A DNA stretch of 64,000 bases. Source: Actinomycetes bacterium. Lineage in GTDB: Bacteria > Actinomycetota > Humimicrobiia > JAHJRV01. Positions 2,233 to 63,841 of the stretch are shown here, piece by piece; within the stretch, counting starts at the first letter, position 1; each line of letters starts with the position of its first letter. Both the position numbers and the translations under genes were made by a program. The DNA is taken from the NCBI GenBank assembly GCA_023129485.1, contig JAGMBY010000053.1, forward strand, positions 1,214 through 65,213, given 5' to 3'. The notes under the pieces were generated by a model. The model did not search any database. It was not told the DNA's origin and saw only the letters and a program-made list of their open reading frames with translations.

Positions 2233-2237
2233 GTGAG

Positions 2238-2714: not shown

Positions 2715-2768
2715 ATTTAAATTTTTAAGCTTTAAATTTATATTCTAAATATTTTAGAGGGATATATA

Positions 2769-3593: not shown

Positions 3594-3755
3594 ATAGCAA
3601 AAATAAAAAAGTAACAATAAAATTTTCAAATTATTAAAAATAAGTAATTCTCAAATGAATAAGCAAATATAAAAGAAAATTTCAAAAAATAAATAGTAAT
3701 AATAACTATAATAACAATAATTACAGAAACAATAATAATATTAAAGGTGACATAT

Positions 3756-4517: not shown

Positions 4518-4556
4518 TTAACAATTAAAATTAAATAATATAAATTATAAATAGGA

Positions 4557-4586
4557 AAATCCTCTCATTGCTTATAATGAGAGGAT
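4557..4586 (+). terminator. Hairpin with perfect 12-bp stem (AATCCTCTCATT / AATGAGAGGATT) downstream of divIVA
   Basis: Inverted repeat read directly in the sequence. The downstream U-tract is weak (ACATTTATT). Confidence 0.5.
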
Positions 4587-4748
4587 TACATTTATTAGTT
4601 AAAAACATATTCATCAAGTTTTTATTATTTTTTTATGTATAATCTCTTAGACAAATTATTACTATTTAATTTAAAATATCTTAACATATATAATAAAATA
4701 ATCACATATGTTGATAGATAATCTATTTATAAATTTTTTGGAGTTAAA

Positions 4749-7700: not shown

Positions 7701-7892
7701 ACAATAATTGATTGTTCTGAAAGAGAGAAAGAAATTATTGAAAAATATAGTGATTATTTATGCACTGAAACTCTAACAACTGACTTAACATTTTCAAAAG
7801 AACTTATTGGTGATATAGAAGAATTTAATATAAATAAAGTTAAGATAAGAGTTGGTTTATCAACTACTGGTTCAATAGTGAACACTTTATAG
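4749..7892 (+). CDS. ileS: Isoleucyl-tRNA synthetase, type 2 (eukaryote-like)
   Basis: HIGH-region PGVHHILARAF and KMSKS (GRKMSKSKSN). DQTRGWFYTMM is diagnostic of IleS2 rather than the HRGWF of type 1. Length 1047 aa. Confidence 0.95.
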   Translation: MFKPVDSKLDLVKLENDILEFWKKDKIFQRSLKNREGNKKFIFYEGPPTANAKPGVHHILARAFKDIFPRYKTMKGYYVPRKGGWDTHGLPVEIEIEKKLGINSKKEIEEFGVKRFNELCRKSVLGYIKDWIEMTDRIAFWIDTSDAYFTFTNDYIETIWWILKQIYDKDLLYQGYKVIAYCPRCGTPLSSHEVAQGYREVEDPSVYVKFKLKDEDSYFLVWTTTPWTLLSNVALAINPDEDYVKISKNDERLILAKTLLEKIVKQPFKTLETFKGSSLIGKRYKPLFNYITPEKDCYIVTDADFVKLKEGTGIVHIAPAFGTDDMRLAQDKNLPVIQLVDESGKLKEEATDFAGLFVKKADPLIIENLKQRNILFKEEKILHTYPHCWRCDTPLLYYARKSWFIATSTIKDKLLKANSDINWYPHYIKYGRFGNWLENNIDWSLSRERYWGTPLPIWQDKNGHIICIGSLDELEKLAKNLPDKLDLHKPYIDEIKLTCPKCKAEMTRIKDVIDCWFDSGSMPFAQLHYPFENYEKFYDNFPADFICEALDQTRGWFYTMMAISTILFEKSSYKNVVCLGLIHDKYGRKMSKSKSNVIDPWSILNKQGADALRWYFFTSSSPWVTKNFDVDIIDKIIKRFILTLWNSYSFFVVYANIDEFDPTKYSTEIKNRSDLDRWILSELNQTVSIVDNCLASYDATRGGKVIEEFVDKLSNWYIRRSRRRFWKSEEDIDKISAYLTLYECLVTIIKLLAPYMPFISEEIYQNIVLTIYKDAPMSIHLTDFPVANEKLIDKNLSEEMNLVRKVVSLGRAARSKASIKVRQPLSNISVYETPQTKKLKNYINIIKEELNVKSFKLTSNLNNILSYKVKLNLELLGPKYGSKIPVIKNIFARMDHQKVADDVLENKEVKLKVNGREIKLLSEEILLETVAPPQHVIEKEGEIALALNTKLSKELIDEGFIRELVRFIQNQRKKAGFKIENTIKTIIDCSEREKEIIEKYSDYLCTETLTTDLTFSKELIGDIEEFNINKVKIRVGLSTTGSIVNTL

Positions 7893-7976
7893 GGTTAGAT
7901 ATTGAAATATAACATATCAGTTTTGGGTATACTTTCTCGACTGAAAATGTCTTCGAAAGTATACCACAAAACTATT
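7893..7976 (+). repeat. Intergenic imperfect-palindrome repeat, copy A (5-prime extension GGT..CATATCAG plus 17-bp stem AGTTTTGGGTATACTTTC / GAAAGTATACCACAAAACT)
   Basis: Recurs at 8600, 33917, 36071 and 51452. This copy carries a compensatory C>T / G>A pair relative to the other copies. Confidence 0.85.
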
Positions 7977-8106
7977 AAATAAATATAACACTAATAAGAA
8001 TACAACTTGATTTAAAAATAGTTTGATTCTTTCAACATGGTTATTTTAGGAAGTTTTAATTAAAAATTGATTAAAAAAATTTTAATTTAAAAAGGAAAAA
8101 TATAAT

Positions 8107-8607
8107 TTGATAGTAAATATGAAAAAGGATATAAAGATAACCTGGTTTTTGTGGTCAGTGGTTCTATTATTTGACCAGATAACAAAATATATAATAAGAG
8201 AAAAATTAAATTTAGGAGATTCGATTTCAGTAATACACAATATTTTTCACATAACTCATATAAACAACACTGGAGCTGCATTTGGAATGTTTCCAAATGC
8301 TCAAATTTTTTTTATTGTTACCTCAATTATTGCTATAATTGCCCTTATATATTTTTTATATACATTTAAGAAAGGAAATCCTACTTTTTATATATCGATA
8401 GGTTTAATTTTAGGGGGAGCAACTGGTAATCTATTGGATAGATTAATTTTAAGAACAGTAACAGATTTTTTAGATTTTGGAATAAATCCAAAGATTAGAT
8501 GGCCAGCATTTAATATTGCTGATTCATCTGTAGTTATTGGCTTTTTTATTCTCGCAATACTGGTAATAAAAGGAGAATTTTTTAAAGTTAATAGGAACAG
8601 GTCCTGA
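8107..8607 (+). CDS. lspA: Lipoprotein signal peptidase II
   Basis: LspA conserved blocks (NTGAAFGMF, DRL, FNIADS). Four TM segments, 166 aa. Start could be the TTG at 8107 or the ATG at 8119. Confidence 0.9.
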   Translation: MIVNMKKDIKITWFLWSVVLLFDQITKYIIREKLNLGDSISVIHNIFHITHINNTGAAFGMFPNAQIFFIVTSIIAIIALIYFLYTFKKGNPTFYISIGLILGGATGNLLDRLILRTVTDFLDFGINPKIRWPAFNIADSSVVIGFFILAILVIKGEFFKVNRNRS

Positions 8608-8673
8608 AATTATACATATCAGCTTTGGGTATACTTTCTTTGTAAAAATACCTAAAAAAGTATATTGAAAAGC
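8600..8673 (+). repeat. Intergenic palindrome repeat, copy B (degenerate 3-prime half)
   Basis: GGTCCTGAAATTATACATATCAGCTTTGGGTATACTTTCTT matches copies A and C and then diverges. The 5-prime extension overlaps the lspA stop codon. Confidence 0.7.
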
Positions 8674-8734
8674 AATTAATATAGGTAAAATTTAAAAAGA
8701 TATATTATAAGCCAATGTTTTTTAGGAGTATTAT

Positions 8735-9469
8735 ATGTATCCAACCTTATTTAAAATAGGTAACATAACGATTCACTCATATGGACTTATGGTTTCTTTA
8801 GGTTTTTTATTAGCAATTTTAATAGTCTATTTTGAATCTAAAAGAAAGGGATTAGACCCAAGTTCTGCATTAGATCTAGGCTTAGCAGCCATGATAGCTG
8901 GTATTCTTGGTAGTAAATTGTTATTTGTAATCAGGAATTGGAATTACTACTCAGAATATCCTATTAATATATTACTTGATTTTGGACAAGGCTTTATTTT
9001 TTATGGTGGCTTAATTCTTGGAACAGTTGCAGTTATATTAGTTAGTTACTTTAAAAAGATTTCAATTGGAACTGTTGCCGATGTCTGTGCTCCAGCAATT
9101 CCTTTAGGTCATGCTATTGGAAGAATAGGTTGTTTATTAAGAGGTTGCTGTTTTGGAAAAGTGTGTGATTATCCCTGGGCGATTCATCTTGAGGGTGCTC
9201 TAAGACATCCAACACAAATCTATCATTTTTTACATAATTTTTTAATTTTTGTTTTTTTATGGCTTATTAGGAAGAAAATTAAAGTGGAGGGAAATCTACT
9301 TTTAATCTATTTAATCCTTTATAGCATAGCTCGATTTATCACAGAATTTTTTAGAGAAAACCCTATATTTACTTTTGGACTTACGGGTTCCCAGGTATTT
9401 TCTATATTAGTATTTTTAGCTTCATCAATATTTTTAATATACAGATATACAATATATAAAAAAATTTAA
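8735..9469 (+). CDS. lgt: Prolipoprotein diacylglyceryl transferase
   Basis: Lgt signature GRIGCLLRGCCFG. N-terminal HSYGLMV and multi-TM layout. AGGAG RBS. Confidence 0.9.
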   Translation: MYPTLFKIGNITIHSYGLMVSLGFLLAILIVYFESKRKGLDPSSALDLGLAAMIAGILGSKLLFVIRNWNYYSEYPINILLDFGQGFIFYGGLILGTVAVILVSYFKKISIGTVADVCAPAIPLGHAIGRIGCLLRGCCFGKVCDYPWAIHLEGALRHPTQIYHFLHNFLIFVFLWLIRKKIKVEGNLLLIYLILYSIARFITEFFRENPIFTFGLTGSQVFSILVFLASSIFLIYRYTIYKKI

Positions 9470-19158: not shown

Positions 19159-19215
19159 ATTTTTAATATTATTTATTTAAAAATCTGGTAAAATTAATAA
19201 AATTTAAATTTAGAA

Positions 19216-19355
19216 ATCTTCAGGGCAGGGTGTAATTCCCGACCGGCGGTAAAAGCCCGCGAGCTCTTATGGCAGATCTGGTTTTTTCCAGAGCCGACAG
19301 TATAGTCTGGATGGGAGAAGATTTGATATAAGCGTCAGGTTTTCTTCCTGACGCT
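19216..19355 (+). ncRNA. FMN riboswitch (RFN element) with downstream expression-platform hairpin
   Basis: CTTCAGGGCAGGGTGTAATTCCCGACCGGCGGTAAAAGCCCGCGAGC...CCAGAGCCGACAGTATAGTCTGGATGGGAGAAGA matches the RFN consensus, including the P1 pair TCTTC/GAAGA. Hairpin AGCGTCAGG-TTTTCTT-CCTGACGCT at 19331-19355. Followed by the rib operon. Confidence 0.95.
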
Positions 19356-23899: not shown

Positions 23900-24445
23900 C
23901 TACTCAATTATTTTTTCTAATATTTCTTTATGTAAACTATAGTCACTTTCTGAATATAAAACTAATCTTACAAGACTTGGTTTTTTATTATTCTTTAAGT
24001 AATTAATTATTGTATTTAGAGCTATTTTTGCAGCCTCCTCTTTGGGATATCCAAAAGCTCCTGTACTTAAAGCTGGGAAAGAAATGCTTCCAAAACCTTT
24101 GTCTTTTGCTAATTTTAGACTATTTTCATAACTTGCTTTAAGTAAAACAGGATCATTATCTGAACGTGAATATATAGGTCCAACAGTATGGATGACATAA
24201 GGAGCTGGTAGATTATAGCCCTTTGTAATTTTAGCTTCTCCAGTTTTACATCCACCAAGTTTTTCACATTCATCCCAAAGTTTCGGTCCAGCAACTCTAT
24301 GTATAGCTCCAGCAACTCCACCACCTGGGGCAAGTCTATAATTAGCAGCATTTACAATTGCATCAGTTTGTTGAGCAGTTATATCACCCCTGACAAGCTC
24401 CAATACATTGTCATTTATTTTCCTTACCATCTTTAATTCATTCAT
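23900..24445 (-). CDS. Macro domain protein (O-acetyl-ADP-ribose deacetylase, YmdB-like)
   Basis: Macro domain motifs GDITAQQTDAIVNAAN, GGGVAGAI, HTVGP. Start set at ATG 24445, 6 nt after GGAGG; the TTG at 24451 used in the ORF track abuts the RBS. Confidence 0.85.
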   Translation of the reverse strand: MNELKMVRKINDNVLELVRGDITAQQTDAIVNAANYRLAPGGGVAGAIHRVAGPKLWDECEKLGGCKTGEAKITKGYNLPAPYVIHTVGPIYSRSDNDPVLLKASYENSLKLAKDKGFGSISFPALSTGAFGYPKEEAAKIALNTIINYLKNNKKPSLVRLVLYSESDYSLHKEILEKIIE

Positions 24446-24746
24446 TTTCAACCTCCAATTTAACCTATTTATTTTAGATATTTGAGAGATATAAAGAATA
24501 GGAATTTATATATAGTGTAAAAATAACAAGTATAATTATAATAATATATAATTATTTTCTTATTTTCTAAAATTTCTTTTCAATGAAAAGCTTTTATACA
24601 TTAAGGGAAGAGAGAATTAAAAAATCATAAGTATTAAAGAACAGTAGTTTGAAGATTATCATGAAATTTTAAATTTTTGATTATCTATTATTTAATAATT
24701 TAAAATAATAAGATGTAATTATATAAAATTTTTATCAAATGAATTA

Positions 24747-34039: not shown

Positions 34040-34834
34040 ATGATAAGGGTGGTGGTAACTGGAGTGAATGGAAGAATGGGAAGTACAATTTGTAGAGGAA
34101 TACTTTCAGAGGAAGATATTAAGTTGGTAGCAGGAGTAAGTACTGGTAAGGCAGGTATGGATATAGGTCAAATAATTGGAGTTTCTGATATTAGTATTAA
34201 AGCTGTCAAAACAGTTGAAGAAGCATTAGATAGTAAACCAGAAGTTCTAATTGACTTTACACACGCTTCAGTAGCACCTGGTAACATAATCTTTGCATTA
34301 AAAAACAAAATTCATGCAGTAGTTGGTACAACTGGAATAGATGAACAAGAAATACAAAAGATAAAAGAAAAATCAGACGAAGGGAAAGCCAATGTTATTA
34401 TGACTCCAAATTTTGCAATTGGAGCAGTACTTATGATGAATTTTGTTAAAAAAGCAGCTCCAAATTTCAAGGATTGTGAGATAATTGAACTTCATCATGA
34501 TAAGAAAGCAGATGCTCCTTCTGGGACTGCATTAGCAACGGCTGAACTGATTAAGTATGTGTATGATAGTAGGAAGAGATTAAAAGAGGGGGAGAGGGAA
34601 AAAGTGGAAGGAGCAAGAGGTTGTTTAACATCAAATATCCATATTCATAGTGTGAGATTACCAGGTCTTATGGCTCATCAGGAGGTAATATTTGGAATTA
34701 CGGGACAGACTCTTACCATTAGACATGATTCTATTTCAAGAGATTCTTTTCTTCCTGGGATTTTTTTAGCAGTAAGAAAGATAGCAAAAATGCCTGGTTT
34801 TACTTATGGAATAGATAAATTATTAGGATTTTAG
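34040..34834 (+). CDS. dapB: 4-hydroxy-tetrahydrodipicolinate reductase
   Basis: N-terminal NAD(P) motif VTGVNGRMG and DapB signature EHHDKKADAPSGTAL. AAGGAG RBS. Confidence 0.9.
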   Translation: MIRVVVTGVNGRMGSTICRGILSEEDIKLVAGVSTGKAGMDIGQIIGVSDISIKAVKTVEEALDSKPEVLIDFTHASVAPGNIIFALKNKIHAVVGTTGIDEQEIQKIKEKSDEGKANVIMTPNFAIGAVLMMNFVKKAAPNFKDCEIIELHHDKKADAPSGTALATAELIKYVYDSRKRLKEGEREKVEGARGCLTSNIHIHSVRLPGLMAHQEVIFGITGQTLTIRHDSISRDSFLPGIFLAVRKIAKMPGFTYGIDKLLGF

Positions 34835-34835
34835 G

Positions 34836-36056
34836 ATGAAAATAGTAGTTCAAAAATTTGGTGGCACATCATTATTAACGGATGAAAGAAGAAAGAGGTG
34901 TGCTAAGAAAGTAATTGAATTAAAGAAAAGTGGAGAAGAACCAGTTGTTGTAGTTTCAGCCATTGGGAGGAAGGGAGATTCCTATGCAACCGATAGCCTG
35001 CTCAATTTAGTGGATATAGATTTTTCATCAAGAGAGGATTTGGATATGTTAATGTCATGTGGTGAGATAATTTCAGCAGTTATATTCTCAAATATTCTTC
35101 AGAAGATGGGATATAAAGCAAAATCGCTATCAGGTGAAATGGCAGGAATTATAACTGACAATAATTATAGTGATGCTCAAATTAAATGTATAAATGCAAA
35201 ATATATAAAGGATTTGTTAAAAAAAGATATAATACCAGTTGTAGCAGGGTTTCAGGGAAAAAGTGAGGAAGGTTTTATAACTACATTAGGAAGAGGTGGT
35301 AGTGATACTACTGCTATTGCTTTAGCAGTTGCTTTAAATGCGGAAAGAGTAGAGATATATTCTGATGTTCCAGGATTGTATACAGCTGATCCAAAAATAG
35401 TAAAAGGAGCAAAAATAATTGATAAAACCGAGTATGAGGAACTATTTAACATATCTTATCATGGAGCAAAGATAGTTAGCATTGAAGCAGCTGAAATGGC
35501 TCTAAAGAGTGATGATTTAGTTATGGAGTTAAAAAGTACTTTTAGTCCAGAGAAAGGAACAAGAGTTTCAAAAATGGTTGAGGAAGATAAAGTTTATTTT
35601 CAAACAAAAAAATTTGCGAGAGCTGTAACTCATATTCCAGATATAACACAGATTTCAATAGAGCTTGAAAAAGATATCGATGAAGATAAAAGGAGATTGA
35701 AAATATATAGAGTTCTTGCAAAAAAGGATATAAGTTTAGATATGTTTACAATTTCACCAGGTGTTTTAATTTTTAACATAAATAGCAAGGACAGGGATAA
35801 AGCTAATGAAGTTTTGAAAGAATTAAAGGTAAACTATAGATTAAGGAATAATTGTGCAAAGATCTCTATAGTAGGAACAAGAATTCACGGTGTACCAGGA
35901 ATTATGGCTAAAATAGCGAATTGTTTATATAGAAAAAAAATTAAAATTATACAAATTGTTGATTCTCATTCAACAATATCATGTCTTATAGATGAAAAGG
36001 ATGTAAATAAAGCATTAAAAACCCTTCATGAAGAATTTAATTTAGGAAACAACTAA
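34836..36056 (+). CDS. lysC: Aspartate kinase
   Basis: N-terminal VVQKFGGTSL kinase motif and C-terminal ACT domains. 406 aa. Confidence 0.9.
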   Translation: MKIVVQKFGGTSLLTDERRKRCAKKVIELKKSGEEPVVVVSAIGRKGDSYATDSLLNLVDIDFSSREDLDMLMSCGEIISAVIFSNILQKMGYKAKSLSGEMAGIITDNNYSDAQIKCINAKYIKDLLKKDIIPVVAGFQGKSEEGFITTLGRGGSDTTAIALAVALNAERVEIYSDVPGLYTADPKIVKGAKIIDKTEYEELFNISYHGAKIVSIEAAEMALKSDDLVMELKSTFSPEKGTRVSKMVEEDKVYFQTKKFARAVTHIPDITQISIELEKDIDEDKRRLKIYRVLAKKDISLDMFTISPGVLIFNINSKDRDKANEVLKELKVNYRLRNNCAKISIVGTRIHGVPGIMAKIANCLYRKKIKIIQIVDSHSTISCLIDEKDVNKALKTLHEEFNLGNN

Positions 36057-36070
36057 AAACTTAAAAATAG

Positions 36071-36163
36071 GAGCTTTGGGCATACTTTCTCCCTTCCCCT
36101 TCGTTACACTCGAGGGTCAAGGGCAGGCTCTGAAAATGTCTTTGAAAGTATACCGCAAAGCTA
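36071..36163 (+). repeat. Intergenic palindrome repeat, copy D, carrying a roughly 40-nt GC-rich hairpin insertion in the loop
   Basis: AGCTTTGGGCATACTTTC ... GAAAGTATACCGCAAAGCT, with the insertion TCCCTTCCCCTTCGTTACACTCGAGGGTCAAGGGCAGGC replacing the usual TCGAC loop segment. Confidence 0.85.
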
Positions 36164-36232
36164 AAAAATTGAAATTGATAATTAAACAAATAAAAATATT
36201 AAATTGAAATTTGAGGAGAGAATAAAAAGGCT

Positions 36233-37114
36233 ATGGAACTGAAGGGAAATCTATTTACAGCAATGGTTACGCCATTTAATGATGACTATAGTCTAAATCT
36301 AAATATGGCAAAAGAATTAGCAAAGAAATTAGTTGATGAAGGTTCAGATGGAATAGTAGTTTGTGGAACAACAGGTGAATCACCAACCCTAAGTAGAAAA
36401 GAGAAATGTAAAATGTTTGAAACTATTGTTGAAGCAGTTGGAGATGTTGCTACTGTAGTAGCTGGGACAGGAACATACTCAACAAAAGAAAGTGTAGAGT
36501 TATCAAAAGTTGCTCAAGAAATTGGAGTTGATGGGGTAATGATAGTTGGTCCTTATTATAATAAACCTCCTCAGGAGGGATTATATCAACATTTTAAAAC
36601 AATTGCAGAGAGTATAGATATTCCAGTTTTAATATACAATGTTCCTTCTAGGACATCTAGAAATATTGATGCACCTACTATAATTAGATTATCGGAAATA
36701 GAGAATATAGTTGCAGTAAAAGAGGCAAGTGGGGATTTTAAACAGATCACAAGGATAATAACGGGAACACCTCATACATTTAAGGTCTTAAGTGGAAATG
36801 ATGGTGATACATTTGGAGTTTTAAATCTGGGAGGAGATGGTATAGTTAGTGTTGCTTCCCATTTAGTTGGAAGAGAGATTAAAGAAATGATAGAAAGCCA
36901 CAAAAAAGGGGATATTAAAAAGGCGCTAGAAATTCATCTTAGACTTTTAGATATATTTGAAACACTGTTCATTACAACTAATCCTATTCCAGTAAAAACC
37001 ATGGTCAATATGATTGGAATAAAGGTTGGTCATTTAAGACTTCCACTTATTGGTGCAACAGAAAGTGAGAAAAAAAGATTTGAGGAATCTCTAGAAAAAT
37101 TAAATTTATTATAA
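36233..37114 (+). CDS. dapA: 4-hydroxy-tetrahydrodipicolinate synthase
   Basis: DapA motifs (GTTGES, IVAVKEASGD) and the Schiff-base lysine region. Confidence 0.9.
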   Translation: MELKGNLFTAMVTPFNDDYSLNLNMAKELAKKLVDEGSDGIVVCGTTGESPTLSRKEKCKMFETIVEAVGDVATVVAGTGTYSTKESVELSKVAQEIGVDGVMIVGPYYNKPPQEGLYQHFKTIAESIDIPVLIYNVPSRTSRNIDAPTIIRLSEIENIVAVKEASGDFKQITRIITGTPHTFKVLSGNDGDTFGVLNLGGDGIVSVASHLVGREIKEMIESHKKGDIKKALEIHLRLLDIFETLFITTNPIPVKTMVNMIGIKVGHLRLPLIGATESEKKRFEESLEKLNLL

Positions 37115-37275
37115 AAATCTATACTATAAAAATCTCATGGATTTTGAATAATTAATATTATTAATATTTATATTTAATGCATTAGTTAGTCTTATGAAAG
37201 AAGCACTATAGTAGTAATAAATACTAAAATAGCAGGAAATAACAAAAAAAATTAGAAATAGAAAAATAAAAAAGA

Positions 37276-39570
37276 ATGGAAAAAATGGGTAATAAAAGAA
37301 ACAAAAATTCAAAAAAAAGAAAGATTGGTAGAAATTCTTATAAGAGAAAAAAATATATTTCAAAAAGGAAATTAAGACCTCATAATAAAAATAATATAAA
37401 AATATTAAAAGAAAGAAAAGATCTATATGGATTATTTATATTGGGGATAGCACTTCTTCTTGGTGCATTTATCTATATAAAACCATCAGGTGTTTTTAAT
37501 GAGGTTATAAATAATATATTAGAAATGGCATTTGGAATTGGAAAATATGCCATTCCTTTCATACTTTTTACTTGGTCAATATCTTTTTTTATTAAAGAAG
37601 AGAAAATAAATTATGTACCTATAGGTATAGGTTTAATCCTTGCTTTCATATCAATTTTAGGTCTAATTTCTCTTAGATTAACAATTAACCAAATGCTGGA
37701 TAAAGACCTAATCTTAACTAATGGTGGATACGTGGGTGGTTTTCTGGCGTATGGCTTTTCAAAAATTATCAGTAAAATTGGATCATCCATTATTTTCTTA
37801 ATAACTTTTGCTATTTCAATCTTGATACTCACAAGGAAATCCATAAAAGAAATTAGGGATGATACAAAGAATCTATTTGTTAGATTAAAATCTAAAGGAC
37901 CCTTTTTAAAGAAGCCCAAAATAATGACTGAAAGAGCTAGGGAGATTTTAAAATCAGGTGAAATAGAAAGAAAGGGATTAAAACCCAAACATGCTATTGA
38001 AAGTGGTAAAGGATTTAAAAAAATATATGAAGCAGGGAAAGTTTATGAAATTGATAAGGACCTCCTGGATGAAACGAGCCCCGCTCAACTAGTTATGTCT
38101 GTTGCAAGTGTAATTGAGGATAAAAGCTATAAAATACCACCAATTTCACTATTAAAGAAATCTGAAACTTCAATTTCTGAAATTACACAAAAAGATGTGA
38201 AAGAAGCTGTAAGAATATTAGAAAGAGTACTATCAGATTTTAGAATAGAAGCAAAAGTTAGAAAGGTAACTAGAGGACCCAATGTAACTTTGTTTTCAAT
38301 AAAATTAGCTCCTGGTATAAAAGTTCAGAAGATATTTAGTATAGAAAATGATTTGTGTGTTGCTTTAGCAACTCCAGACTTAAGAATCTTAACACCTATT
38401 CCAGGAAGAGCTGCATTAGGAATTGAGGTTCCGAATAAAGTGAAAGAAATTGTAACTTTGGGGGACATATTGCTATCTCCAGATATTGATCAGGAAAGAG
38501 GTATATTAACAGTACCATTGGGGAAAGATTTAAAAGGGCAACCTTTATTTATTGATATAGTAGATATGCCACATTTACTTATAGCCGGATCTACAGGTTC
38601 GGGGAAAAGTTCATGCATAAACAATATGATAACTGCACTCTTATATCAGACGAGACCTTCAGATGTTAAATTTTTAATGATTGACCCAAAAATGATTGAA
38701 CTTTCCGTTTTTGATGGAATACCTCATCTACTTACAAATGTGATTACAAAACCAAAAGAAGCATCCTCAGCCCTTACCTGGGTTGTTAGAGAGATGGAGC
38801 AAAGATTTGAGATAATTGCAAAGGCCAGAGTCCGTTCTATAGAACAATATAATGCAAATTTGGATAAAATTAATAGTAGATTATCTGAAGATGAGAAAAA
38901 GTTTAAGCATATGCCATATATAATAATCTTTGTGGATGAGCTTTCTGATTTAATGATTGTCTCAGCAGCTGAAGTAGAAGACTCAATTTGCAGGATTGCT
39001 CAGATGGCGAGAGGTGTAGGAATTCACTTGATTATTGCAACACAAAGACCATCTGTGAATGTTATCACAGGATACATAAAGGCAAACATCCCATCAAGAA
39101 TAGCATTTTCTGTTACATCTGGAACAGATTCACGTGTTATACTTGACCAGATAGGAGCAGAAAAATTAGTAGGTAGGGGAGATATGTTATATCTTCCAAC
39201 AAGCTCGTCGTCTCCAATCAGAATTCAGGGATCATTTGTAACTCAGAAAGAAATAGAAAGCATTGTAACATATATAAAAAATCAGGTTAAACCAAGATAT
39301 ATTAAAGATATAACGAAAGTAGAATCAAAAATTTCTGAAAAAGTAACAGAAGATGAAGAACTTATAGAGGAAGCAATAAAAATGATATTGAAAGCTGGAT
39401 ATGCATCAGTTTCACTTTTGCAGAGAAGATTAAGATTAGGTTATTCAAGAGCAGGAAGATTAATAGACATATTGGAAGATATGGGAGTCGTTAGTGGTTA
39501 TGCTGGGAGTAAACCAAGGGAAGTTCTTATAACAGAAGAAGAATTTGAAAAAATAATATCCAGGAAATAG
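37276..39570 (+). CDS. ftsK: DNA translocase FtsK/SpoIIIE
   Basis: N-terminal TM segments, Walker A GSTGSGKS, FtsK ATPase core and C-terminal gamma winged-helix domain. Confidence 0.9.
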   Translation: MEKMGNKRNKNSKKRKIGRNSYKRKKYISKRKLRPHNKNNIKILKERKDLYGLFILGIALLLGAFIYIKPSGVFNEVINNILEMAFGIGKYAIPFILFTWSISFFIKEEKINYVPIGIGLILAFISILGLISLRLTINQMLDKDLILTNGGYVGGFLAYGFSKIISKIGSSIIFLITFAISILILTRKSIKEIRDDTKNLFVRLKSKGPFLKKPKIMTERAREILKSGEIERKGLKPKHAIESGKGFKKIYEAGKVYEIDKDLLDETSPAQLVMSVASVIEDKSYKIPPISLLKKSETSISEITQKDVKEAVRILERVLSDFRIEAKVRKVTRGPNVTLFSIKLAPGIKVQKIFSIENDLCVALATPDLRILTPIPGRAALGIEVPNKVKEIVTLGDILLSPDIDQERGILTVPLGKDLKGQPLFIDIVDMPHLLIAGSTGSGKSSCINNMITALLYQTRPSDVKFLMIDPKMIELSVFDGIPHLLTNVITKPKEASSALTWVVREMEQRFEIIAKARVRSIEQYNANLDKINSRLSEDEKKFKHMPYIIIFVDELSDLMIVSAAEVEDSICRIAQMARGVGIHLIIATQRPSVNVITGYIKANIPSRIAFSVTSGTDSRVILDQIGAEKLVGRGDMLYLPTSSSSPIRIQGSFVTQKEIESIVTYIKNQVKPRYIKDITKVESKISEKVTEDEELIEEAIKMILKAGYASVSLLQRRLRLGYSRAGRLIDILEDMGVVSGYAGSKPREVLITEEEFEKIISRK

Positions 39571-39610
39571 GATCCTCCAATTTTTTAATTAAGCAAAAAT
39601 TATTAAAAAA

Positions 39611-40423
39611 TTAAAAGCAAAGCTTGTAGGGAATTTTATAATCTCTTGCAACTCCTTTTATTTTTGCTATAAGTTCCTGTTTGTATAATTCCCTGTCATA
39701 ATAGAAAAACTTGTAATGATCAGAAATTTCAGGAAATCTGTTCTCAATTAATCTTTTAACTTTCCCCCAAACTTTTGGATATGGATTCAAACTATCAATT
39801 AAAATATTAACAACCTTTGCATGAACAGCCTCTTTAAAAATTTTATCAATTACATCTTTATTATCTGAAAAGTAGGGTATAACTGGACCAAAAAATAAAA
39901 ATGTTTTTATATTTTGACTTGATAGTTCAGACAATGCTTTAAAACGATTTTCAGTAGTTGAGCTTTTTGGCTCAAAAATTTTTCTAATTTTTTCATTAAA
40001 AATAGTTGCAGTAATACCAACTTCAATATCTTTAATCTCTTTTATTAAATCCATATCTCTAAGAACTAGTGAGGACTTTGTTTGTATAGAAACTGGAAAA
40101 TTGGAATTGACAAGTTCTTTTAAACAGGATCTTGTAATTTCATATTTTTCTTCTAAAGGTTGATATGGATCAGTAACTGTTCCTAAAAGTATAGTTCCCG
40201 GTTTCAATCTATTTAGTTGTTTATGTAACACATCTGCAGCATTAATTTTAATATCCACAAAATTTCCCCAGGGCTCTTTGTGTCCAGAGAATCTTTTCAT
40301 GAAAACAGCATAACAATATATACAGCCATGCTCACAACCTGTATAAGGATTTAAAGCATAATCTCCAACTGGAATCCCAGTTTTATTTAAAATTGATTTA
40401 CAAAAAACCTCTTGAATTTTCAT
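39611..40423 (-). CDS. Radical SAM protein, SPL-like family (COG1533 DNA-repair-photolyase-like)
   Basis: CxxxCxxC cluster motif in YTGCEHGCIYCYA. 270 aa. Lies 20 bp downstream of the DUF362 gene on the minus strand. Confidence 0.65.
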   Translation of the reverse strand: MKIQEVFCKSILNKTGIPVGDYALNPYTGCEHGCIYCYAVFMKRFSGHKEPWGNFVDIKINAADVLHKQLNRLKPGTILLGTVTDPYQPLEEKYEITRSCLKELVNSNFPVSIQTKSSLVLRDMDLIKEIKDIEVGITATIFNEKIRKIFEPKSSTTENRFKALSELSSQNIKTFLFFGPVIPYFSDNKDVIDKIFKEAVHAKVVNILIDSLNPYPKVWGKVKRLIENRFPEISDHYKFFYYDRELYKQELIAKIKGVARDYKIPYKLCF

Positions 40424-40443
40424 AACTCATTTTAAAATATTTA

Positions 40444-41547
40444 TTATTTAACAGTAATTAATTGGTAATTTATATTTCCAAGACCAATCTTTTGACCATG
40501 TTCCAGTTGAACTCTCCAATTTATTTTATTTAAATCATAAAACTTGTCCTTAGATTCTATTTTATCTTTTAATTTTCCTAATGGATTTATTGGAGCGTTG
40601 TTCACTAAATCAACACTTGCTTTATCAATAGCAACTATATCTTTTGATGCTAAAATTCCTAAATCAGGAACTATTGACAAATCACTCCAGTTACAACAGT
40701 CACAATCTGGAGTAATATTAATAAGAAAATTAATAAAACCTACCTTCTCTTTTTTTGTGTTTAATATTCCATAAGTATATTCTGTCATCTTCTTTTGAAA
40801 TTCTTCGGCTTTTATTACCCACTTTATTTTTATTGCAGAAGATCTGCATACAACTAGACAGTCTCCACAACCTTTACACTTTTTCTCATCAATTGTAGCA
40901 ATTTTTTCAGTTAGAGATATTGCATTAAAAGAACACCTACTTACACATAATCCACATCCGGTACAATTATCTTCAATTATTTTTGGAGTAAGTCCAGAAT
41001 GTTGTTGAAATTTTCCTCTTTTTGAAGCACAACCCATTCCCACATTTTTAATTGCACCACCAAATCCTGTTAATTCATGACCCTTGAAATGAGATAAAAC
41101 TATTAATGCATCAGCATTAATGATATCTGAACCTATGTAAACTTCTTTTAATATTTCACCATCAATTTTAATGGTTAAATAATCATCACCAATAAGTCCA
41201 TCTGCAACTATAAAAGGTGCTCCAATACTTGAAAAAGAAAAACCATGTTTTATAGCTGAAATTGAATAATCAATTGCATTATGACGCAATTGAGCGTAAA
41301 GAGTGGTAGTATCTGTTATAAAAGGTTTACCTTTTCTTTCTTTTATCATATCTACTATACTGCTCACAAAAGATGGATTTAAAAATGAAGTATTTCCGGG
41401 TTCTCCTGCATGAATTTTTATTGCAACTAAATCATTTTCTTCAATATTATTTAAAATTTCTGATCTTCTTACAATTGTTTTTAACTTATCATAAAGATTT
41501 CTTTTATACATTGCTCTTGCATCTGTATAGAAAACCTTACTTTCCAT
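40444..41547 (-). CDS. DUF362 domain protein with two 4Fe-4S ferredoxin motifs
   Basis: DUF362-like blocks (AIKIHAGEPGN, HFKGHELTGFGGAIKNVGMGC) plus CTGCGLCVSRC and CKGCGDCLVVC. GGAGG RBS 9 nt before the ATG. Confidence 0.7.
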   Translation of the reverse strand: MESKVFYTDARAMYKRNLYDKLKTIVRRSEILNNIEENDLVAIKIHAGEPGNTSFLNPSFVSSIVDMIKERKGKPFITDTTTLYAQLRHNAIDYSISAIKHGFSFSSIGAPFIVADGLIGDDYLTIKIDGEILKEVYIGSDIINADALIVLSHFKGHELTGFGGAIKNVGMGCASKRGKFQQHSGLTPKIIEDNCTGCGLCVSRCSFNAISLTEKIATIDEKKCKGCGDCLVVCRSSAIKIKWVIKAEEFQKKMTEYTYGILNTKKEKVGFINFLINITPDCDCCNWSDLSIVPDLGILASKDIVAIDKASVDLVNNAPINPLGKLKDKIESKDKFYDLNKINWRVQLEHGQKIGLGNINYQLITVK

Positions 41548-41784
41548 TAGATCAAACCTCCTTATTTTTTAAAATTTATTATATTAATAAAAAATTGTAA
41601 ATTTTATAAATACTTTTAAAATTCTTAGATTATTACTAAAAAATACTTTTACTATTTTTTACATCATTTTGATTATGATATCATTTTCAGAAGGTATATT
41701 ATATTATAAAGTTAGTATGATTAAGGATAAATTTATCAAACTAATATAAAAACTTTCAATGAAATTAAACTAAAAAAATTCACT

Positions 41785-43215
41785 ATGAAACACAATAAAA
41801 ATGTATATTTAATTACACTTGGGTGTCCCAAGAATGAATATGATTCAGACTGTATAAGTTATATTTTGGAAGAGAATGGTTTTTTTATTACAAAAAATGT
41901 TAGAGAAGCAGATATTGTAATAATAAATACATGTTGTTTTATTGATCCTGCAAAGGAAGAATCAATTGAAGCAATTTTAGAAATGACTCAGTTAAAAGAG
42001 AAGATGAATTTTATATTAATTGTTTTTGGTTGTATGTCACAACGGTATTATATGGAATTATCTAAAGAGATACCTGAGGTTGATGGTTGGGTAGGTTTAT
42101 CAAATATGTCATCTCTTCCTAAAGTTATTTATGAGATCTTTGATAATAAACAATTATTAATTAAAGGAAGTAATGAGTTTCGGAAAGGTTTGTTAAAAAA
42201 ACGAATTTCTAAAAAATATATTTCAAGATTTAAACCAATTTGCTTGGTTGAGAACATAAATGGATGGGTAAAAAGACAACCTGAAAGAGGATTTTTTGGA
42301 GAATTACCATATGCATACTTAAAAATAGCTGATGGTTGTGATCATAGTTGTACATTTTGTGATATACCTAATATAAAGGGTAAACATGAATCAAGATTAC
42401 CAGAGAAAATTATTGATGAAGCAAAAGAACTTGTTGATAATAATGTCAAAGAGATAATTTTAATATCGCAGGATATTACACAATATGGAAAAGATTTAGA
42501 AGAAAGATTTGATTTAATAAGATTGCTAAATGATTTAATTGAAATTGACAATTTAAGTAGAATCAGATTAATGTACTTAAATCCAGGTGGTATTAATGAT
42601 GATTTGATTAGTTTAATCTCTCAAAGTGGAAAAATATGTAAATATTTAGATATCCCAATTCAACATGTAAGTACTAAAATATTAAGAAAGATGGGTCGCG
42701 GAGGAAGCTATAATGAATTTTTAGAACTTTTTTTAAAAATTAGAGAAAAGATATCAGATATAGTATTTAGAAGCTCAATTGTTATTGGTTTTCCTTCTGA
42801 GACAGAAAGTGACTATGATTTAATTTGTAAATTTTTAAAAGAAGCTAAACTTGATTGGGTGGGTTTTTTCAAATTCTCACCACAAAAAGGTACGAAAGCT
42901 TATTACTATAAGAATAGAATAAATAAAAAAACAGTTGATAGAAGGTATAATGATATAGTGCTTCTTCAGAATGAAATTTCAATGGAACTTCGTGAAGAAT
43001 TAGCGGGAAAAACATTGGATGTATTGATAGAACAAACTTCTATTGAAATAGAAGATTTTTGGGAAGGGAGGTCATATAGAGAAGCCCCAGAAATTGATGG
43101 TTTAATATTCGTTGAAAAAGATAATATAGCAAAAGGAGACTTAATTCCAATCAAAATAACCCATAGTCAATTTTTTGATCTTTATGGAAGAGTTATAGTT
43201 AATGAAAAATTATGA
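41785..43215 (+). CDS. rimO: Radical SAM methylthiotransferase, RimO-like (ribosomal protein S12 methylthiotransferase)
   Basis: MTTase N domain with LGCPKNEYDS, radical SAM CDHSCTFC and C-terminal TRAM domain. 476 aa. Confidence 0.75.
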   Translation: MKHNKNVYLITLGCPKNEYDSDCISYILEENGFFITKNVREADIVIINTCCFIDPAKEESIEAILEMTQLKEKMNFILIVFGCMSQRYYMELSKEIPEVDGWVGLSNMSSLPKVIYEIFDNKQLLIKGSNEFRKGLLKKRISKKYISRFKPICLVENINGWVKRQPERGFFGELPYAYLKIADGCDHSCTFCDIPNIKGKHESRLPEKIIDEAKELVDNNVKEIILISQDITQYGKDLEERFDLIRLLNDLIEIDNLSRIRLMYLNPGGINDDLISLISQSGKICKYLDIPIQHVSTKILRKMGRGGSYNEFLELFLKIREKISDIVFRSSIVIGFPSETESDYDLICKFLKEAKLDWVGFFKFSPQKGTKAYYYKNRINKKTVDRRYNDIVLLQNEISMELREELAGKTLDVLIEQTSIEIEDFWEGRSYREAPEIDGLIFVEKDNIAKGDLIPIKITHSQFFDLYGRVIVNEKL

Positions 43216-43384
43216 TAATTGCAGCATTAATTACAATAGCATAGGGATTAGATTATTCTTAGAGATTTTGAGCAATTTTAGTGAAATTATTATTTTGTTT
43301 ATGATTATTAATATATAATAAATCAAAGTTGCTAAAAGGCTCTTTAAGATTTTTTAATTAAACCTTACTATCAAGAGGATAAGA

Positions 43385-43984
43385 TTGAATTTTTCTAATA
43401 GACTAACTATTTTTAGAATATTAACAATTCCAGTTTTTTTATATTTCCTATTAGCTGATACAAATAGTTCAATTAGACAATCACAGTTTATATGGGCTGC
43501 AACAATTGTCTTTCTTATTTCTGCTATTACAGATGCAGTGGATGGATATATTGCTAGAATTAGAAATGAAGTTACAGCATGGGGAAAATTAATGGATCCA
43601 ATTGCTGATAAGATTCTAATTTGTTCTGCTTTGATAGCATTGGTTGAATTGGGAAGAATACCTTCATGGATTACAATTATTATTATTTTTAGAGAGTTTT
43701 TAATATCTGGACTAAGAGCTGTTGCTGCAACAAGAGGTGTAATAATTTCAGCCAGTATTTTAGGTAAGGCAAAAGCAGTTATTCAAATAATAGCTGTAAT
43801 AATAGCAATGATAAACACTTCGATATCAGGAATTAACTTTTTACCAATATCATTTCTCGGAATACAGTTAGAAATGTATTTTTTGATAATTGCAGTATTG
43901 ATTACAGTAGCATCAGGATTAGATTATGTTTGGAGATTTGGAGCAATTTTAGCAAAATTAACTGTTAAGGAAATAAAAAAATAA
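43385..43984 (+). CDS. pgsA: CDP-diacylglycerol--glycerol-3-phosphate 3-phosphatidyltransferase
   Basis: CDP-alcohol phosphatidyltransferase motif DAVDGYIAR...GKLMDPIADK. TTG start after AGAGGA. Confidence 0.85.
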   Translation: MNFSNRLTIFRILTIPVFLYFLLADTNSSIRQSQFIWAATIVFLISAITDAVDGYIARIRNEVTAWGKLMDPIADKILICSALIALVELGRIPSWITIIIIFREFLISGLRAVAATRGVIISASILGKAKAVIQIIAVIIAMINTSISGINFLPISFLGIQLEMYFLIIAVLITVASGLDYVWRFGAILAKLTVKEIKK

Positions 43985-44009
43985 GTAAAAATTAGCGTAA
44001 TTTATAAAA

Positions 44010-44540
44010 ATGAAAATGAATCTATCAATACAAAGCTTGGCAACTGAAGTACATGAATTATTATTAGAAAAGGGATTAACTCTCTCAATAGCAGAATCCT
44101 GTACAGGTGGATTAATTTCCAGTATTTTGACTAAATTGCCAGAATGTTCAAAATATTTTAAAGGTTCAATTGTGTGTTACTCCTACTATTCAAAAGGGAG
44201 TATTTTAAATATTAATAAGAATATATTAGAAAAATATGGCACAATAAGTTCGGAAGTAGGTTTAGAAATGGCAAAAAAAACAAAAGAGCTGTTTGATTCA
44301 GATATTGGCTTATCAGCTACAGGGGTAGCTGGACCATCAAGTGAGGAAAATAAACCAGTTGGGTTAGTTTATATTTCTTTATATTCTGATGATTTTTCGA
44401 AAACAAAAGAATTAAATCTAAGGGGAACAAGAGGGGAAATCCAACTAAAAGCTGTCCAGGCAGCACTTAATATATTACAAATTTATTTATCGAAATTAAA
44501 CAAAAATATTAAAATTGGGGCACTAAATTGGAAAAAATAA
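44010..44540 (+). CDS. CinA C-terminal domain protein (nicotinamide-nucleotide amidohydrolase PncC-like)
   Basis: LSIAESCTGGLISSILT motif. 176 aa. Position before recA. Confidence 0.85.
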   Translation: MKMNLSIQSLATEVHELLLEKGLTLSIAESCTGGLISSILTKLPECSKYFKGSIVCYSYYSKGSILNINKNILEKYGTISSEVGLEMAKKTKELFDSDIGLSATGVAGPSSEENKPVGLVYISLYSDDFSKTKELNLRGTRGEIQLKAVQAALNILQIYLSKLNKNIKIGALNWKK

Positions 44541-45091
44541 GAGCTTTTATAGCTGCTCCAATATCAGAAGAAACTAGAGGTCATTTAAATAAAATTATTA
44601 AAGAAATAAAAAGAAAAACTTCTGATTGGAGATGGATTACTCTAGAAAATCTTCATATAACATTAAAATTTCTAGGATATTGTAATAATGACCAAATTTT
44701 AGATGTTCAAAGAACTATTTCAAAGTGTATTGAGAGTATAGAACCATTTTCGTATGAATCAGGAAATCTGGGAGCTTTTCCAAATGAGAGAAATGCTCGA
44801 GTTCTTTGGGCTGGGATAAAGGATGAAGGAAAAAATTTCATTAAAATTTATAAATTACTTGAAAGGAATCTTGCAAAGAGAGGTTTTGAGAAGGAGAGGA
44901 GAAGTTATTCTCCTCATATAACTATTGCTAGATCTAAAAAAAGACAAAATATTAGGGATTTTTTATCAGAATTAGATTTAGAAAAGTTTGGAAATCTTCC
45001 TTTACAACTAAATGATAGAATAACTCTTTATAAAAGTGTCTTGTCTCCTAGCGGAGCTTCTTATTACATAATTAAAGAATTTATTTTTTAA
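44528..45091 (+). CDS. thpR: RNA 2-prime,3-prime-cyclic phosphodiesterase (2H family ThpR/LigT)
   Basis: Two H-x-T-x motifs (HITLKFLG and HITIARS). Confidence 0.8.
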   Translation: MEKIRAFIAAPISEETRGHLNKIIKEIKRKTSDWRWITLENLHITLKFLGYCNNDQILDVQRTISKCIESIEPFSYESGNLGAFPNERNARVLWAGIKDEGKNFIKIYKLLERNLAKRGFEKERRSYSPHITIARSKKRQNIRDFLSELDLEKFGNLPLQLNDRITLYKSVLSPSGASYYIIKEFIF

Positions 45092-45120
45092 AATGAATTA
45101 AAATTTAACTCTTCTGGTAA

Positions 45121-45134
45121 GAACTCATGTATAT
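45121..45134 (+). promoter_or_regulatory. Candidate LexA (SOS) box GAACTCATGTATAT upstream of recA
   Basis: Shares the 10-mer GAACTCATGT with the site upstream of lexA. Resembles the Firmicute GAAC-N4-GTTC operator with a degenerate right half. Confidence 0.35.
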
Positions 45135-45298
45135 TTAATTAGGAGAAAAAGATAATTGATAATCATTTGTAATATCTAAAGCTAGATAACAATCTATAGA
45201 AATTAAATTTAAAGACTTTTATTATTATAAACAGCAATCTATTAATTTTCTATTTAAAATTGATAAATAACAATTTATAATAATTATAAATATATTAA

Positions 45299-45328
45299 TT
45301 TGACTCAAGCAATTGCTCATGATATAAT
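45299..45328 (+). promoter_or_regulatory. Sigma-A-like promoter for recA (TTGACT - 17 nt - TATAAT, extended TG)
   Basis: TTGACTCAAGCAATTGCTCATGATATAATT read directly; about 40 nt upstream of the recA RBS. Confidence 0.55.
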
Positions 45329-45366
45329 TTACGCAAATGTGCAATTATTTAAATTATGGAGGATAA

Positions 45367-46380
45367 ATGGAGAAAGAAAAGGCGTTAGATATTGCAATGA
45401 CTCAGATAGAAAGACGATTTGGTAAAGGATCAATAATGGTTTTAGGAAGAGAAGGTCCATTGCAAGAAGTAGAGGCAATACCAACAGGTTCATTGGCTTT
45501 GGATATAGCATTAGGTATTGGGGGTGTTCCAAGAGGAAGAGTTATTGAAATATATGGTCCAGAGGGTTCAGGAAAAACTACTTTAGCTCTTCATATAATC
45601 GCAGAAGCACAGAAATTGGGAGGTACTGCTGCTTTCATAGATGCTGAACATGCTTTAGACCCAATATATGCTAAAAACTTGGGTGTGAATACGGATGAGC
45701 TATTGTTATCACAACCAGATACAGGTGAACAAGCTTTAGAAATCTCAGAAATGTTAATAAGAAGTGGGGCATTAGATGTTTTAGTAATAGATACAGTAGC
45801 TTCACTAGTTCCAAGAGCAGAAATAGAAGGACAAATGGGAGATAGTCATATGGGACTTCAAGCAAGGCTTATGTCGCAAGCATTAAGAAAATTATCTGGT
45901 GCAATAAATAAATCTAATACATGCGCTATTTTTATTAATCAAGTTAGGGAAAGGATTGGAATAATTTTTGGTAACCCTGAGACAACACCAGGAGGTAGAG
46001 CCCTAAAATTTTATTCAACTGTGAGGATGAGGGTTAGCAAAGCTGCAAGCATAAAAGTTGGAACAGATATTATTGGAAGTAGAGTAAGAACCAGGATTGT
46101 AAAAAATAAACTTGCACCACCATTTAAAAAAGCTGAGTTCGATATATTATTTGGCAAAGGTATATCAAGAGAAGGGTCCTTGGTTGATTTAGGTGCTGAA
46201 CATGGAATAATCAAAAAAAGCGGAACATGGTACTCATATGGTGAAGAACAGATAGGTCAGGGAATGGAAAATGTTAGAAAATATTTAATAGATAATCCAG
46301 AAATAGCGGAAGATATTGAAAACAAAATAAGAGCTAAAGTAGGATTATTAAAAGAGAAAGAACCCGAAGAAGAAAAATAG
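45367..46380 (+). CDS. recA: Recombinase RecA
   Basis: Walker [10 protein letters not shown]. Highly conserved RecA sequence throughout. Confidence 0.98.
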
Positions 46381-47289: not shown

Positions 47290-47470
47290 CCTTGAAAACT
47301 GAATATCTGCTCCGAGTTAAACATCTAAGGATTTATCTATGATATTTAACCGGTAAGATAGTGAAAAATATCTTTAAGGGTCAGTTTTGGAAACAAATTG
47401 GCCTCCCGTGTTTGGAAAGGAGCAAGAAAATAAAACACCAACCTCTTTTCAACACGAGAGAAGGTGTTTT
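47290..47470 (+). promoter_or_regulatory. Structured leader with intrinsic terminator; candidate Moco/Tuco riboswitch
   Basis: Nested stems (AAATCCTT/AAGGATTT, GATATTT/AAATATC, CTCC/GGAG). Conserved-looking blocks CTCCGAG, GCCTCCC, GAAAGGAG. Terminator AACACC..GGTGTT followed by TTTTTTATTTT. Located upstream of tupABC-moaA-moaC. Confidence 0.5.
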
Positions 47471-63086: not shown

Positions 63087-63710
63087 TTATATTCTTCGTA
63101 TTAATGCAATAACCTTACCTAAGATTTTAACTTCGGTTAGAATTATTGGTTCCATAAAGTCATTTTCTGGTTGTAGTCGCACTTTTCCATCCTCTTTGAA
63201 GAATCTTTTCACAGTAGCTTCATCTTCTAACAATGCGATTACAATATCTCCATTCTCAGCCATGCTTTGTCTTTTTGCTATCAATAAATCATCAGGTTTA
63301 ATTGCAGCATTTATCATGCTTTCACCTTTTACTTTTAGCATGAAGACATCTTTAGAACCAACAAAATCGATTGGAAGTGGGAAATATTCAGTAATATTTT
63401 GTTCAGCTAAAAGTGGTGTTCCAGCTGCAATTTTTCCTACAATTGGAACCGGAAAAAAATTCTTCCTTAAAATTCCTCTATATTTCTTAGAGGGATAGGT
63501 TATTTCAATTGCTCTTGGTTTAAAAGGATCTCTTCTTATATAATCTTTCTCTTTTAATTTATCTAAATGACTCTGAACCGTTGCGGGTGATCTAAGTCCC
63601 ATAGCTTTACCTATTTCCCTAACTGATGGGGGATAACCATTTCTTATAGTAAATTTCTCAATAAAATTCAAAATTTGCTTTTGTCTTTTTGTAAGTCTTT
63701 CCTCAATCAT
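63087..63710 (-). CDS. lexA: LexA repressor (SOS regulator, S24 peptidase)
   Basis: N-terminal winged HTH (LTKRQKQILNFI, PSVREIG), autocleavage and Ser-Lys dyad region (GESM...AKRQ). AAGGAG RBS 7 nt before the ATG. Confidence 0.95.
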   Translation of the reverse strand: MIEERLTKRQKQILNFIEKFTIRNGYPPSVREIGKAMGLRSPATVQSHLDKLKEKDYIRRDPFKPRAIEITYPSKKYRGILRKNFFPVPIVGKIAAGTPLLAEQNITEYFPLPIDFVGSKDVFMLKVKGESMINAAIKPDDLLIAKRQSMAENGDIVIALLEDEATVKRFFKEDGKVRLQPENDFMEPIILTEVKILGKVIALIRRI

Positions 63711-63827
63711 GAAAATTCTCCTTATTTAATTAAAATGAATTTCAATATAACTAACATTATTTATGTTATTTATTATAAAAATTAACAACATTTTAGTATA
63801 ATATAGCACAAATTTTATAAAAAAGCA

Positions 63828-63841
63828 AACATGAGTTCGAC
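63828..63841 (-). promoter_or_regulatory. Candidate LexA box GAACTCATGTTTGC (lexA-strand orientation) about 120 bp upstream of lexA
   Basis: Same GAACTCATGT 10-mer as upstream of recA. Overlaps a plausible -35 (TTTGCT) of a TGcTATATT extended -10 promoter on the minus strand. Confidence 0.4.

Follow-up and report, generated by a model that had tools for sequence, protein, structure and literature searches.

Two probably independent orphan genes adjoin in one lineage

In a 64,000-nucleotide (nt) stretch of DNA from an Actinomycetes bacterium (the window, to whose whole length all positions given here refer), two minus-strand genes lie side by side between ftsK and rimO. One encodes a DUF362 protein with an inserted ferredoxin domain (DUF362-Fer4), the other a radical SAM protein that resembles spore photoproduct lyase (SPL). 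The two are likely to be independent orphan genes with vertical inheritance, which adjoin each other and are probably co-transcribed in this lineage only, within a recombining, variable slot. Their adjacency is probably due to chance rather than to membership of a conserved functional module. The first-pass annotation of this DNA had taken the tight pairing for a couple of an electron donor and a radical SAM enzyme, acquired as a unit, and had proposed gene-neighbourhood searches, naming a pairing that is not conserved in other genomes as the outcome that would refute it.

Pairing was judged from gene loci in two surveys. One covered 80 genome loci with orthologues of the radical SAM protein (37-86% identity), which were searched with the DUF362 protein within 6 kb; the other took 80 loci from metagenomes that encode DUF362-Fer4 orthologues (42-49% identity) and searched them for the radical SAM protein. 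A DUF362 gene was found near the radical SAM gene in a single one of the 80 radical SAM loci, L006 (loci and contigs are designated by L numbers), which itself belongs to the window's lineage. None of the 79 radical SAM loci outside the lineage contained it, and in 69 of these the upstream side, which the DUF362 gene occupies in the window, is covered for 1.3 kb or more. No relative of the radical SAM protein was found in any of the 80 metagenome loci. The partner gene was likewise missing in single-locus look-ups at 55-60% identity. Clustering of three neighbouring genes on each side revealed no family that recurred in more than 4 of 70 radical SAM loci or more than 5 of 73 DUF362 loci. The neighbourhood check thus came out negative, and since the pairing is not conserved, the functional-module reading fails. 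What is left is a lineage-specific juxtaposition of members of large, known and uncharacterised families, an ordinary finding that matters little in itself, and the pairing gives no help in predicting what either family does elsewhere.

Layout of the locus

Both open reading frames (ORFs) are present as described by the first-pass annotation, 20 nt apart, converging with ftsK and diverging from rimO. The features of the locus are as follows (aa, amino acid residues).

37276-39570, plus strand: ftsK, its stop at 39570 converging with the radical SAM gene
39500-41600: segment whose divergence is discordant with that of its flanks by DNA and protein identities, a putative recombination tract over both genes
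39571-39610: convergent spacer of 40 nt between the ftsK stop and the radical SAM stop; site of a cyclophilin-like gene in L001, L006 and L088
39611-40423, minus strand: radical SAM gene (270 aa; non-SPL clade of COG1533; PF04055)
40313-40336, minus strand: CX3CX2C radical SAM cluster motif, C30/C34/C37 with Tyr36 and Tyr38 (alignment A1 and alignment with SPL)
40424-40443: spacer of 20 nt between the DUF362 stop and the radical SAM start, with no more than a weak GAG, and lacking a minus-strand terminator
40444-41547, minus strand: DUF362 gene (367 aa; COG2768-type, with an inserted 2x[4Fe-4S] ferredoxin domain; PF04015 and Fer4)
40825-40986, minus strand: ferredoxin insert, residues about 188-241, with two CxxCxxCxxxC motifs (Fer4 Pfam stretches)
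41548-41784: divergent, AT-rich intergenic region of 237 nt shared with rimO (GC about 0.21-0.22)
41557-41561, minus strand: GGAGG, the ribosome-binding site of the DUF362 gene, 9 nt ahead of its ATG, read from the sequence
41785-43215, plus strand: gene of a rimO-type methylthiotransferase, its start at 41785 diverging from the DUF362 gene

Both genes are real, each having thousands of homologues. The strong ribosome-binding site ascribed to the pair applies to the DUF362 gene, which is preceded by GGAGG, and does not extend to the radical SAM gene, which has a weak GAG at most. The two genes are also not the only ones to leave the plus strand, as had been stated: among ORFs of at least 150 aa the window holds four on the minus strand, the other two being a Macro-domain gene (23900-24451; PF01661, E 7e-43) and lexA (63087-63710). 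That neither protein has an assigned biochemical function agrees with our results, as all NCBIfam models stayed below their cutoffs, sequence searches yielded no close solved structure, and the literature on DUF362, COG2768, PA0069, Rv2578c and TIGR04470 provided no functional characterisation.

The slot between ftsK and rimO varies within the lineage

Between the DUF362 and radical SAM genes, L088 has a spacer of 20 nt, L089 one of 36 nt and L001 one of 167 nt, and in L006 the two genes are about 3 kb apart. In L006 (3117-5576) genes on the opposite strand come between them, comprising a PemK toxin-antitoxin pair, a methyltransferase gene and a PNPOx-like gene, so that the pair cannot share a transcript there. 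L179 spans the region from the 3' end of ftsK to rimO; this interval includes no radical SAM gene and only a 91-residue DUF362 remnant (residues 273-363). It carries an 8.5-kb island (913-8755) with a toxin-antitoxin pair as in L006, methyltransferases, a DUF772 transposase fragment, an Rce1-like protease and YkuD. The PemK/MazF toxin-antitoxin pairs of L006 and L179 are 92-94% identical. The pairing is thus not the unbroken one of a module, being split in L006 and lost from the ftsK-rimO interval of L179.

On the other side of the radical SAM gene, towards ftsK, a cyclophilin-like gene is found in L088 (5389-5766; 125 aa), L001 (3710-4087; 125 aa) and L006 (6826-7197; 123 aa). L088 carries this gene, yet the genes around it match those of the window at 98-100% identity; tblastn detected no trace of the cyclophilin-like gene in the window. 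Because it is cleanly absent from the window and present in the near-identical L088, the cyclophilin-like gene represents a presence/absence polymorphism.

Sequence identities further indicate that the two-gene segment was replaced by allelic recombination inside the lineage. Compared to L089, the nearest relative, the window shows 77-85% DNA identity over about 39500-41600 and 87-96% (mostly 92-96%) in dapA, ftsK, rimO and pgsA. Compared to L001 the relation is reversed, with 82-93% in the segment and 65-85% in the flanks. Protein identity matrices give a matching pattern, and the shifts in DNA identity are sharp and coincide exactly with the borders of the two-gene segment. It is this discordance between segment and flanks that points to allelic replacement.

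A lineage-specific couple is the strongest alternative

Alternatively, DUF362-Fer4 may in this lineage have taken on the role of a dedicated partner of the SPL-like radical SAM protein, as its reductase or in its pathway, both being encoded by an anaerobic repair or modification operon with one promoter. We regard this as unlikely, although several observations favour it and count against two independent genes. The genes share a strand, and the 20-nt spacer without a terminator suggests a single transcript, so co-transcription in the window is probable. The pair also has a single strong ribosome-binding site and a single promoter region, 41548-41784, which presumably holds its promoter; promoter-like hexamers occurred in it only at chance level, and an Rfam scan detected no family in or beside the pair. 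The order rimO<- DUF362-> radical SAM-> <-ftsK is kept in six contigs of the lineage (the window, L001, L088 and L089-91) at 79-99% identity. Apart from the DUF362 remnant, both genes are missing together from the slot of L179, and both exhibit one discordant divergence pattern, that is, a common recombination history. On chemical grounds, a protein with a ferredoxin domain could plausibly reduce a radical SAM cluster by supplying the low-potential electron that radical SAM enzymes need. A further point weighs on the favoured reading of two independent genes only: the chemistries that we propose for it below are both drawn from fold analogy.

Against the couple, its members are unpaired in the 79 and 80 loci outside the lineage. 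Within the lineage, opposite-strand genes preclude a shared transcript in L006 and the spacer is widened in L001. Joint loss and joint recombination are expected of any two adjacent genes, and physical linkage suffices to explain that both moved together. In addition, the fold of the DUF362 domain is that of an enzyme, and it has a conserved pocket of its own. Generic reductants, such as ferredoxin, flavodoxin and the ferredoxin domains fused to glycyl-radical activases, offer a comparison: a 2x[4Fe-4S] module of clostridial type adjoins a radical SAM gene, and the ferredoxin module of the DUF362 protein resembles those in activases, RnfB and HdrA. Here, however, the module is embedded in an enzyme-like protein of 367 aa and its association with the radical SAM protein is not conserved. 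If the two genes are independent, as we favour, the radical SAM protein would be reduced by a general cellular ferredoxin or flavodoxin.

We give still less credence to the idea that, in this deep-branching low-GC lineage, DUF362-Fer4 is the dedicated electron partner of the radical SAM protein in a self-sufficient anaerobic cassette for nucleic-acid repair or modification that is swapped between relatives by recombination. If true, the recruited cassette would offer a first way into the function of two very large families, both so far uncharacterised.

Composition and divergence argue against a foreign cassette

The first-pass annotation had further suggested acquisition of the two genes as a unit. 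The GC z-scores of the two genes are -0.55 and -0.46, and their codon-usage distances rank 33rd and 43rd of 53; GC content and GC content at third codon positions (GC3) are also typical of the window. As both genes are native in GC, GC3 and codon usage and lie within the normal range of the window, a foreign origin by composition was rejected and a recent one is argued against. The proposal has a weak echo in the discordant history of the 2-kb segment, which linkage alone explains.

The lineage as a whole is isolated. Identity falls from 78% to 60% at its limits for the radical SAM protein, from 79% to 53% for the DUF362 protein and from 73% to 43% for rimO. As the drop for rimO is of a similar kind, the two genes appear to date back as far as the lineage itself.

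That the pair is nevertheless a recently acquired foreign cassette, transferred horizontally as a unit like the 'radical SAM mobile pair' of plasmids, is improbable in our view. Its orientation opposed to the surrounding genes, the mobile-looking cargo in the slot of relatives (toxin-antitoxin modules and the DUF772 transposase fragment) and the discordant history of the segment would be consistent with such a transfer. So would two database matches of the radical SAM protein, to a PHROG family (E 2.4e-53) and to its top-scoring named NCBIfam family, radical SAM mobile pair protein B (TIGR04470; E 2e-52, residues 3-267 against model positions 1-257 of 285). The composition shared with neighbouring genes and the low identity of the nearest homologues outside the lineage (60% for the radical SAM protein and 53% for the DUF362 protein, with a similar gap for rimO) speak against it, and neither repeats nor an integrase or tRNA were noticed at the borders.

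The likeness to the plasmid system is likewise limited. The radical SAM protein shares about 35% identity with annotated plasmid members of mobile pair protein B and is likewise part of a two-gene arrangement, but its score of 178.3 bits falls far short of the cutoff of 410. On Bacteroides plasmids, mobile pair protein B is paired with a second radical SAM protein, 'pair A', whose gene overlaps that of B and is preceded by a metallo-beta-lactamase (MBL)-fold hydrolase gene, whereas here no 'pair A' gene is present, the upstream gene encodes DUF362-Fer4 without a PF04055 match, the context is chromosomal and the composition native. The mobile pair operon of a Bacteroides cellulosilyticus plasmid (L177, 2548-4861) consists of the genes for the MBL-fold hydrolase, pair protein A and pair protein B. 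At the Cloacimonas-type loci L003-L005 an MBL-fold gene adjoins the radical SAM orthologue on the opposite strand. A phage origin of the radical SAM gene was also considered and rejected: the match is to PHROG 13321, yet no relative from phages exceeds 36% identity.

The radical SAM protein belongs to an uncharacterised COG1533 clade

The radical SAM protein matches PF04055 with an E value of 8e-15, and its cluster motif C30-x3-C34-x2-C37, which reads C30-EHG-C34-IY-C37, bears out the first-pass assignment to an SPL-like COG1533 type with the motif CEHGCIYC. In alignment A1, C30, C34, C37 and Y36 are invariant and Y38 is at least 90% conserved; C8 and C100 are further invariant cysteines of the family. 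More than 7500 homologues, mostly of about 270 aa, were found in Atribacterota, WOR-3, Chloroflexota, Planctomycetota, Bathyarchaeota and many other groups, named, where a name is given, 'DNA repair photolyase' or 'radical SAM protein'. All NCBIfam models stay below their cutoffs for this and the DUF362 protein. Besides mobile pair protein B, the radical SAM protein scores 156.5 bits with the PA0069 family model (cutoff 360) and 131.5 bits with that of Rv2578c (cutoff 430). Judged by these profile scores, it belongs to a large uncharacterised clade together with PA0069, Rv2578c and 'mobile pair protein B'. Membership of a defence system was rejected, as matches in PADLOC were marginal only.

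A sequence search identified no solved structure for the radical SAM protein, and SPL (SplB; TIGR04070, PF20903; PDB 4FHC) was the sole family retrieved from the PDB by profile search (E 0.003). The radical SAM partial TIM barrel is common to both, and the cluster motif aligns with CMGHCHYCY of SPL, so that the CxxxCxYCY pattern and both tyrosines of the SPL YCY are kept. A genuine SPL that repairs 5-thyminyl-5,6-dihydrothymine is nonetheless the least credible of the explanations, given a score of 21.7 bits (E 8.4e-05) with the true SPL model TIGR04070 (cutoff 400), an identity to SPL of 14%, a length of 270 aa versus about 340 aa, an AlphaFold 2 (AF2) model that lacks the long beta-hairpin of SPL, an invariant Val tentatively aligned to SPL Cys141, and a family with many members in archaea and in phyla that are not known to form endospores.

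Structural comparison substantiates these differences. The conserved tyrosines of the motif are equivalent to Tyr96 and Tyr98 of SPL (PMC3467042). Ahead of its barrel SPL has an alpha/beta domain at the N terminus, composed of a four-stranded sheet and three helices (PMC3467042), whereas the radical SAM protein has 29 residues before C30, which form three short strands and zero helices in the AF2 model. The long beta-hairpin of SPL, with Arg304 and Tyr305, serves lesion flipping (PMC3467042); in the AF2 model, strand 206-211 is followed by helices and one terminal strand of 3 residues as assigned by DSSP, and the profile alignment to SPL stops short of the hairpin region. The position of the H-donor cysteine of SPL (Cys140/141), C141, appears to align with the invariant V83 in a hidden Markov model (HMM) alignment of 22.7 bits with a B. 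subtilis SplB sequence whose numbering is self-consistent; C8 and C100 are other invariant cysteines of the family.

PA0069 and Rv2578c, assigned to COG1533 as 'SplB' of SOS regulons, are of the same clade by profile score and likewise uncharacterised in their biochemistry. These and other 'splB' relatives are LexA-regulated in several phyla (PMC4951493, PMC8565304, PMC3381160, bioRxiv 10.1101/2022.03.14.484287). The window, too, encodes lexA and recA. The radical SAM protein differs from both in scoring below their cutoffs and in its length, 270 aa compared to model lengths of 317-348, and the pair has no LexA-box-like site upstream, whereas lexA and recA of the window have one. The sequence CGAACTCATGTTTG lies upstream of lexA (63826-63839) and the similar AGAACTCATGTATA about 235 nt upstream of recA (45120-45133); both are candidate SOS boxes of this lineage. 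SOS control of the pair is not supported: 41548-41784 contains neither a GAAC-N4-GTTC-like (Cheo-type) site nor the lexA/recA box, the LexA motif of the lineage being only guessed from those two sites.

By fold analogy, the reduced [4Fe-4S] cluster and SAM would generate a 5'-deoxyadenosyl radical, which may abstract hydrogen from a nucleic-acid lesion or a similar bulky substrate, leading to a lyase-type repair. The branch of COG1533 proteins of about 270 aa is a worthwhile biochemical target: it is huge, extends over bacteria and archaea, has SPL as the nearest structure and has core SOS genes of uncharacterised chemistry as relatives.

The DUF362 protein has an enzyme fold with a built-in ferredoxin

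The presence of a DUF362 domain with two CxxCxxCxxxC motifs, as read in the first pass, is borne out by a PF04015 match of 170.5 bits (gathering score 24, E 6e-50, residues 41-313) and by matches to Fer4 families at residues 188-211 and 216-239, inside the DUF362 domain. The motifs are C195-x2-C198-x2-C201-x3-C205 and C224-x2-C227-x2-C230-x3-C234, and all eight cysteines are invariant in alignment A2. The architecture of a DUF362 domain with a Fer4 insert occurs in all 120 homologues among the matches listed. PDB matches of the protein (RnfB, HdrA and ferredoxins) are confined to the ferredoxin insert.

Unlike a plain ferredoxin, the DUF362 domain has an enzyme fold, which is LarA-like. LarA proteins are nickel-pincer nucleotide (NPN) lactate and 2-hydroxyacid racemases (DUF2088, PF09861; PDB 5HUQ, 7S91, 9EIA), and their superfamily is placed in the same Pfam clan as DUF362, CL0471 (PMC11770544). 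The DUF362 protein contains conserved His, Lys and Cys residues that would line a pocket (HFKGHE, K167, H183 and PDCDC), among them the invariant H157, K167 and H183, which are spaced 10 and 16 residues apart. Lar_N (PF09861) matches residues 135-185 only, a stretch that includes all three residues, with 20.5 bits, below its gathering score of 23.3. The catalytic His174, the NPN-tethering Lys184 and the Ni-binding His200 of LarA have the same spacing. The DUF362 protein is, however, only 11-16% identical to LarA, about 100 of its non-ferredoxin residues remain unaligned to it, and a profile of its N-terminal half did not recover LarA. The 2x[4Fe-4S] insert and the conserved PDCDC motif are not known to be features of LarA.

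On this analogy, DUF362-Fer4 proteins possibly hold a nickel-pincer-like cofactor, and the internal two-cluster ferredoxin may act as a wire that moves electrons to or from the His/Lys/Cys pocket of a LarA-fold enzyme. With such a wire leading to a conserved pocket, the DUF362 protein would be a redox enzyme in its own right. The LarA-like fold together with the His-Lys-His spacing thus hints at a redox-wired LarA-type enzyme, and this suggestion is independent of the pairing with the radical SAM gene.

Other features of the window

The genes around the locus (34040-46380) are arranged in the order dapB-lysC-dapA-ftsK ... rimO-pgsA-cinA-thpR-recA-recX. The first-pass annotation had called this order Bacillus-like; it fits actinobacterial (mycobacterial) synteny as well. 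The nearest database records are labelled as metagenome-assembled genomes of Actinomycetota/Actinomycetes, despite a GC content of about 29%. Two riboswitches on the plus strand of the window scored well over the Rfam gathering score, a flavin mononucleotide (FMN) riboswitch at 19212-19326 (116.9 bits) and a molybdenum/tungsten cofactor riboswitch at 47298-47438 (77.9 bits).

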